A stretch of DNA of 64,000 nucleotides, taken from assembly GCA_964016885.1 (NCBI GenBank), contig OZ024766.1, positions 3,348,001 to 3,412,000 on the forward strand. The letters run 5' to 3'. Origin of the DNA: Eledone cirrhosa. Lineage: Eukaryota. How positions within the stretch are numbered: the first letter of the stretch is position 1; the number at the start of each line of letters is the position of its first letter. Shown here piece by piece: positions 28,275 through 29,679 of the stretch. The position numbers were made by a program, and so were the translations under genes. Under the pieces are notes generated by a model. It saw only the letters and a list, made by a program, of their open reading frames with translations. It had not been told where the DNA came from and made no database searches.

Positions 28275-28357
<83 letters not shown>

Positions 28358-29679
28358 CACTGCTTACCTCAACATTTCCTATATATATAGTTATACTTTG
28401 GGAGGGTCATGTTGCCAATAAGAAACACACGCACGCACCAGTTGCTTTCACTCCAATTTATTATAAATTTCCGGTTGGTTGGTTGGTTGGTTCCACAACC
28501 GGACGGTTGTTCCTATATTGTCAAAGTTCTTTCGTCACACATTCTGTGACCTCTTCAGTGACAAAACAAACTCAGAAACGAAATATAAATATATATATAT
28601 ATATGTGTGTGTGTGTGTATATATACACTGCTTACCTCAACATTCCCTTCACTGGTGCCCACAGCCAGGAAATTACCCTCCTTCACCCAGGCCACTGAAC
28701 TGATGTAGGCTTCGGACGCGTCCAGCTCGGTCAGTTGTTTTATGTCTCCAGTGCCAGCGTTCCACAGGTAGAGGTGACCAGCGAGGGCCACGGCCAGCTG
28801 GTTATTAGCTGACCAGTCCAACAGATTCAGGTCTGGAGAGAGAGAGGAAGAAACGGGTGAGATTTGCAACATTACACATGGGTGGAGGTGTTGGTGGTGT
28901 TGGAGGTGTTGAGGGTGGTGTTGGTGGTGGTGTTGGTGGCGTTGAGGGTGGTGGTGGTGTTGAGGGTGGTGTTGGTGGCGTTGAGGGTGGTGGTGTTGAG
29001 GGTGGTGGTGGTGTTGGTGGTGTTGGTGGCGTTGAGGGTGGTGGTGATGGTGGTGGTGTTGAGGGTGGTGTTGGTGGAGGTGTTGGTGGTGTTGGTGGCG
29101 TTGAGGGTGGTGGTGGTGTTGGTGGTAGTGTTGTGGTGGTGTTGTGGGTGGTGGTGTTGAGGGTGGTGGTGATGGTGGTGGAGGTGTTGGTGTTGAGGGT
29201 GGTGGTGTTGGGGGTGGTGGTGTTGAGGGTGGTGGTGATGGTGGTGGAGGTGTTGGTGTTGAGGGTGGTGGTGTTGAGGGTGGTGGTGTTGAGGGTGGTG
29301 GTGGTGTTGATGTTAGTGATGGTGGTGGTGGTGGTGGTGTTGAGGGTGGTGGTTGGGGTGTTGGTGTTGATGTTGGTGGTGATGGAGGTGGTGATGATGT
29401 TGGTGTTGGTGTTGATGATGCTGGTGTTGTTGGTGATGATGTGTGTGGTGTTGGTATTAATGGTGCTTTTTTGCCGTGGCACCTCCACGACCACTTTGCA
29501 GTGGAATGATAGGGACCCCAGTCCCTATCATCTCATTTCTACAGCTGAGTAAACTGGAGCAATGTGAAATAAAGTGTCTTGCTCAAGGAAACAACACATC
29601 TCCCGGTCTGAGAATTGAACTCACAACATTCCGATTGCAAGGCCAATATATATACATTAGTTAGTACTTACAATAGTCA

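Follow-up and report, generated by a model that had tools for sequence, protein, structure and literature searches.

Background

Minimal hammerhead motifs of metazoan Penelope-like elements (PLEs) were described in PMC4209133, where a single minimal hammerhead from Schistosoma gave no detectable cleavage and dimers had low activity. According to PMC11167929, the hammerhead of an anole PLE cleaved only together with the element's protein, and this protein cuts and extends both DNA strands, with reverse transcription starting at two sites which bound the tail. About 43% of Xenopus retrozyme copies are reported to be intronic (bioRxiv 10.64898/2026.07.22.740005), and therefore intronic hammerheads derived from PLEs appear to be commonplace. 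In cephalopods, PLEs form an annotated part of the Octopus vulgaris repeats (PMC13282606). Repeated splice donors are likewise on record: human F7 intron 7 holds identical repeated donors of which the first one alone is used, and the same source cites human 6-16 and CBS as genes where repeated pseudo-donors are used (PMC1557585).

Here we analyse a stretch of 64,000 nucleotides of Eledone cirrhosa (assembly GCA_964016885.1, contig OZ024766.1, positions 3,348,001 to 3,412,000, forward strand), below called the window, in which a transposon fragment and a duplicated donor lie side by side in intron 4 of the mitotic gene cdc20. A sequence-only reading had taken the duplicate for a long target-site duplication made by the insertion. 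We identify the insert as the truncated end of a pseudo-LTR, from a high-copy Penelope-like element, in a TA run of the intron. In our opinion the duplicate donor is rather probably a separate, microsatellite-associated local duplication, with the hammerhead, the AATAAA and the decoy donor likely near inert. The whole arrangement is likely harmless and ordinary. Our literature search, which covered few subscription papers, found no paper on the cdc20 locus; published hammerhead alignments might include a cephalopod family.

Results

The cdc20 gene and the window

The minus-strand gene was identified as cdc20 (Pfam WD40_CDC20-Fz, E 8.7e-20), its closest relatives over the exon being Cdc20 of Octopus sinensis (89% identical) and of Argonauta (86%). 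Mapping of the Octopus sinensis Cdc20 protein placed eight coding exons, and the gene is intact, as the earlier reading had it. The fourth of them, from the WD40 region, occupies 28636-28832 (minus strand; placed by protein mapping, with ends set by the spliced contig described below) and is single-copy in the whole assembly. Exon 5, with the acceptor of intron 4, lies at 27063-27157 (minus strand; protein mapping and spliced contig). Pfam returned no family for four protein fragments. The orthologous octopod intron was not recovered, the metagenome scan yielding 10 distant loci at 46-69%. Another Cdc20-family locus (L189, G000:C27:3,964,000-3,973,999) shares its contig with cdc20, at a distance of about 600 kb, and presumably represents fzr/Cdh1, and a divergent Cdc20-like gene was seen at L190 (G000:C9:52,739,000-52,747,000).

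Several other repeats were noticed in the window. Satellite arrays with a unit of 60-72 nt occur at about 21400-24300 and on, at 750-1130, 27354-27531 and 60100-61000, the longest being in cdc20 intron 6; on the minus strand the unit carries a donor-like GAG/GTAAAG, and three copies are found in intron 4. Pairs of a high-copy SINE-like repeat (26391-26558 with 29462-29628, and 26781-26946 with 28068-28232) are located in cdc20 introns 3, 4 and 5. Frames at 3339-2302 (minus strand) we take, by their motifs, to resemble a Tc1/mariner-type transposase.

The duplicated end of exon 4

Read on the minus strand, the locus consists of the exon 4 end, its donor, (AC)7(AT)7, the element, (TA)5, a second exon end with donor, and (AC)14(AT)24. 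The direct repeats of exon end and donor, which had been claimed before, are indeed present at 28647-28620 and 28379-28352 and agree at 27 of 28 positions. The native copy (28620-28647, minus strand) comprises the last 12 nt of exon 4, the donor GT at 28635-28634, which is the one used in the contig of run X4, and the first 16 intron bases. Its duplicate (28352-28379, minus strand) brings in a decoy donor whose GT, at 28367-28366, lies 268 nt inside the intron. The second donor is identical to the native one over -9 to +16 and the sole substitution falls at exon position -10; the nine exon nucleotides first reported for the duplicate are thus exact, or twelve can be counted with one mismatch.

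Between the copies, the (AC)7(AT)7 microsatellite with a few TA-like bases (28583-28619) forms the left part of the target run, and (TA)5 at 28380-28389, between the short end of the element and the duplicate, forms its right part. The (AC)14(AT)24 microsatellite past the duplicate spans 28277-28351. Both repeat copies run into (AC)n(AT)n, the lengths of which are unequal.

The insert and its parent family

The insert, 193 nt long (28582-28390), stems from a Penelope-like retrotransposon, of which it is the 3' end (pseudo-LTR), and sits in a TA repeat. The hammerhead-bearing insertion proposed earlier is therefore upheld, now as a Penelope-like pseudo-LTR end, but not its size of about 210 bp, since beyond the 193 nt of the element proper the remainder is TA repeat. 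Two arms can be distinguished. An inverted arm (28564-28582, plus strand) corresponds to the last 19-20 nt or so of the family tail, called here the long 3' end, and matches the tail end of a long genomic copy, L041, at 19 of 20 positions. The sense arm (28390-28563, minus strand) is a 5'-truncated pseudo-LTR which reaches from the hammerhead to the tailless, or short, 3' end; 28562-28390 aligns locally to L041 across the whole arm, showing that the insert is homologous to the 3' pseudo-LTR of the parent.

The family is abundant. A genome search with the insert gave 893 first-look candidates, of which 40 were scored, with main matches 83-93% identical; exact copies of the 35-nt hammerhead core number 5,919 in the genome (control 0), and the junction pattern of tail to hammerhead has 32 genome matches (control 0). 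Longer copies also include, upstream, the C-terminal part of a GIY-YIG domain, and a search with the GIY-YIG fragment gave 36,761 first-look candidates.

L041 contains an open frame of 995 aa with reverse transcriptase (RT) plus GIY-YIG at the C-terminus in one frame, the RVT_1 match (E 2.9e-4) falling below the Pfam cut-off and the GIY-YIG match (E 5.8e-5) above it. This frame has 91 relatives at E<=1e-30, one of them named GIY-YIG domain-containing, and a CX4CX2C linker precedes the GIY-YIG. The hammerhead follows about 200 nt past the ORF end, then the short 3' end and, some 60 nt later, the long 3' end on a TA run, the tail thus measuring about 60 nt (5404-5468). Judged by the features listed in PMC8557442, which do not separate Neptune from Nematis, the putative parent is an EN+ Penelope-like element of the Neptune/Nematis type.

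Structure of the insertions and a possible route

All 71 two-ended insertions that were counted possess a tailed end and, in inverted orientation to it, a tailless one, each on a TA run; 45 of 45 come from a set about half of which was picked by a pattern requiring the tail, and 26 of 26 from 80 loci picked by hammerhead match only, which gave 26 definable two-ended insertions. L019, L031, L040 and L088 overlap other loci and were left out of the counts. Such one-tailed, inverted insertions in TA runs fit the accounts of PLEs given in PMC8557442 and PMC11167929. With this strict rule of one tail per insertion, the genome bears a clear imprint of the two-start-site model, for which the in vitro evidence comes from the anole element.

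For cdc20 we infer that the GIY-YIG nuclease of the parent cut the TA run in intron 4. Both DNA ends would then have primed reverse transcription, one at the tailed and one at the tailless start site, and two short cDNAs would have been joined head to head, so that the inverted tail is followed by the stretch from hammerhead to short end, with TA on both sides.

Origin of the duplicate

A duplicate made during the insertion, either as a rare long target-site duplication or as an insert templated during repair of the break left by the nuclease, would agree with the position of the element exactly between both copies, and long target-site duplications are known for the non-LTR elements R9 and Dualen, as mentioned in PMC9977147. 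One difference in 28 unique positions between the copies marks the duplication as young, which would also suit this origin; the parts of the insert would still be mostly inert.

If the family duplicated its flanks habitually, other insertions would carry the trace. The flank test, in which a complex 15-mer with at most one mismatch had to be shared between the 120 nt past the microsatellite on each side, picks up the cdc20 case. It found a duplicated flank in none of the other testable insertions (0/35 and 0/24, together 0/59, after 9/44 and 2/26 two-ended insertions had been left out as having low-complexity flanks), from which it follows that the family makes no such duplications as a rule; the upper 95% bound of 5.0% still allows for a minority of up to about that size. 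In element-free TA blocks the same test gave 13 matches in 255 (40 evenly spaced 10-kb stretches) against 3/761 in the mismatched-pair control, an uneven background, with the 13 matches confined to 7 stretches, 7 of them in a single one (L124), and three looking loose. Blocks of this kind in the C1 loci gave 2/317 (0.6%). Pooled, 0/59 insertions and 15/572 element-free blocks do not differ significantly (Fisher p 0.38). The data show no enrichment of flank duplications at insertions and are still compatible with a rare insertion-linked duplication.

The gene itself adds two points. Between the element and the duplicate stands a (TA)5 to which nothing corresponds before the native copy, an arrangement not accounted for by a simple staggered cut. 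Moreover, a like form exists in the same gene with no element: the end of exon 3 and its donor are duplicated at 29787-29756 and 29679-29648 (minus strand), 32 nt identical, with a pure (GT)n/(TA)n block between. There the last 8 exon nucleotides and the donor are repeated, with GT at 29779 and 29671, 108 nt apart. Exons 3 and 4 carry the two cdc20 donors, among six checked, which have a TA run within about 20 nt. Further element-free examples are found at other TA runs. At L186:897-540 (minus strand; G000:C11 near 31,536,300) a 72-nt protein kinase exon is followed by 7 tandem donors with no element between, the last exon bases and the donor recurring together with a TA run in units of 46 nt. 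The pattern donor-TA-donor has 125 matches genome-wide against 74 in the control, heavily clustered in arrays; among the 27 such loci that were read a clear coding exon was present in one only, and an enrichment of duplications at true donors does not follow from these counts.

The (TA)5 asymmetry together with the element-free duplication at exon 3 favours a duplication independent of the insertion. The earlier claim of a long target-site duplication made by the insertion was not borne out, considering both the 0/59 and exon 3, and an insertion-made duplicate of either kind seems to us possible but rather improbable. With a separate duplication, as we prefer, the earlier locus would most simply have been X-(AC)n(AT)n-X'-(AC)n(AT)n. 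By landing in the first AT run the element would later have divided it, leaving 7 units on one side and 5 on the other.

The hammerhead

The minimal type I hammerhead reported at 28564-28518, sense to cdc20 (minus strand) and about 70 nt past the donor, was confirmed by a descriptor match and begins 71 nt after the donor GT at 28635. It is composed of a 6-bp helix I, the core CUGAAGA with one unpaired G, a 6-bp helix II, GAAA, and a helix III of 2 bp with a 2-nt loop, with a predicted cut between 28524 and 28523. The structural traits of a minimal hammerhead could be recognised: the CUGANGA core, GAAA, the UH triplet, helices I and II and the unpaired base before helix II. The descriptor gave 1 match in the 64-kb window and a mean of 0 in 20 shuffled windows. 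Rfam at gathering scores had no match in the window. No second hammerhead was found on the same strand within the 64 kb, and the tandem arrangement that would mark a retrozyme is not seen there.

In folding energy the motif did not surpass shuffled sequences (z from -1.4 to -1.75 with short pieces and 0.0 with 101 nt), and energy is therefore not used as evidence; the minimum-energy fold predicted with 101 nt of context is different from a hammerhead. Helix II is 98.7% paired, and two of its pairs are changed on both sides in an alignment of 13 rows, mainly as one split between two families. These paired changes point to selection in the parent elements, not in the cdc20 copy. The latter has an intact catalytic core and a helix I of 6 bp, compared with 4-5 bp in most copies. 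In the main variant the loop of helix III falls short of a perfect palindrome; a near-palindromic subfamily (1) and a GTAC copy (1) were noted among 107. A second hammerhead family, which has CUGACGA as its core, a U left unpaired and helix II altered by paired changes, and which shares the short-end motif, was observed at L044:1062-1109, L053:5706-5753, L090:2015-2062 and L130:7620-7667.

Consequences for cdc20 RNA

A contig of run X4, 1,632 nt long and inferred to be RNA-derived, contains exons 4, 5 and 6 end to end with 28636 joined to 27157, i.e. by the native donor; it originates from another sample, differs in two letters of exon 5 and may come from an allele without the insert, and contigs of this sort drop rare isoforms. 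Among the runs listed as holding the sequence none is recorded as RNA, and the RAD-seq runs X5 and X6 had no coverage of exon 4. Use of the decoy donor would add 268 nt with an in-frame stop. In cdc20 pre-mRNA the upstream donor would likely be chosen, and rare use of the decoy would produce a stop-bearing transcript.

The AATAAA announced downstream of the hammerhead was found at 28457-28462 (minus strand, motif position). It belongs to the family pseudo-LTR: of 90 family copies that were read between hammerhead and short end, 84 have it.

A rival reading is that, for example during expression of the parent, cdc20 output is measurably lowered by the decoy donor, by the AATAAA or by a hammerhead that is assisted by protein or dimerises in trans. 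The 9-mer of the decoy is identical to the native one and is the only other AG-GTRAG site in intron 4, the catalytic core is intact and thousands of identical cores exist in the genome, and words of the family are present in run X4, from which the spliced contig comes. Nevertheless, the native junction stands in one unbroken contig, the window offers no partner hammerhead and the helix III loop is an imperfect palindrome. The AATAAA motif occurs outside the element too, in introns 2, 4, 6 and 7. The one in the element lies between two U1 sites, and nearby U1 sites are expected to suppress early cleavage at AATAAA. The anole PLE hammerhead, which cleaves once its protein is added (PMC11167929), keeps a lowered output conceivable, yet we hold it to be decidedly improbable. 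Thus, the decoy donor, the self-cleavage site and the polyA signal put forward by the sequence-only reading do exist as features, but the functional worries attached to them are weak, because a lone hammerhead was inactive in the published test (PMC4209133), the AATAAA is a trait of the family and the native donor is used in the only transcript evidence; low-level effects of the three may still occur.

Discussion

The proposed near-inert pseudo-LTR end beside a separately arisen duplicate donor makes the cdc20 insert one among thousands of Penelope-like ends, and repeated donors beside exons are known and usually silent, so the arrangement matters little. The locus itself would be of interest only if real cleavage or decoy use occurs. 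On the other hand, its two neighbouring, naturally duplicated donors, 108 and 268 nt apart, provide a ready test of the choice between upstream and downstream donors in a cephalopod.

An assembly error joining two haplotypes, with and without the element, is very doubtful. Errors are easily made at microsatellite junctions, the pattern is seen at two neighbouring donors, and the short-read contigs of runs X1-X4 skip the repeats at 28300-28364 and 28573-28632 and leave 28360-28374 uncovered, a gap that speaks neither for nor against the assembly or decoy use. But the copies differ by one substitution as well as in the lengths of their repeats, both ends of the element abut TA in the normal way, and the junction to the duplicate begins inside the exon, not at a shared anchor. 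Equally far-fetched is the idea that the thousands of identical intact hammerheads of the family, many of them presumably intronic and sense, cut host pre-mRNAs in a protein-assisted or trans-dimeric manner when the parent is expressed, which, together with the decoy donors after exons 3 and 4 and the stop codons to which these lead, would tie cdc20 output to transposon activity and microsatellite length.

Among known systems, the human F7 intron 7 donor-spanning minisatellite, as presented in PMC1557585, resembles the duplicated exon end in form: the exon end and donor are repeated into the intron as identical pseudo-sites, and the first donor is seen in mRNA, as in the cdc20 contig. It differs in being a 37-bp array, whereas cdc20 has two copies 268 nt apart with a microsatellite and a transposon scrap between; furthermore, cdc20 is subject to invertebrate splicing, and its decoy is known here from sequence.

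Animal non-LTR retrozymes, as outlined in bioRxiv 10.64898/2026.07.22.740005 (see also PMC7229834), share with the insert the nature of a small non-coding hammerhead repeat related to PLE pseudo-LTRs. Unlike them, the cdc20 insert is not built of tandem monomers; it represents one solitary end, truncated and bearing an inverted tail, of a family that is autonomous.

The motif itself agrees with the metazoan PLE minimal hammerheads of PMC4209133 in being of type I, with an unpaired base between positions 9 and 10.1, a G10.1-C11.1 pair, a short helix I and a vestigial helix III, and in occurring mostly as lone dispersed copies with some opposite-strand pairs. It departs from that account in a helix II of 6 bp, compared with 7-8 in Schistosoma, in the 6-bp helix I of the cdc20 copy and in the imperfectly palindromic loop 3 of the main variant.

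The anole Poseidon element PAc, in the description of PMC11167929, likewise has a pair of 3' ends with a tail between them, taken in that paper for two RT start sites, cuts and extends both DNA strands and has AT-rich targets; its hammerhead, however, overlaps the ORF start, whereas that of L041 lies about 200 nt after the ORF end.

The EN+ Neptune/Nematis PLEs described in PMC8557442 share the RT, the CX2-5CxxC linker and the GIY-YIG, strong 5' truncation, the inverted arm, the one-end tail, (TA)n targeting and a hammerhead in the pseudo-LTR. The tail of about 60 nt exceeds the 30-40 bp quoted there, the cdc20 copy carries no coding sequence, and the clade is assigned here tentatively, by features.
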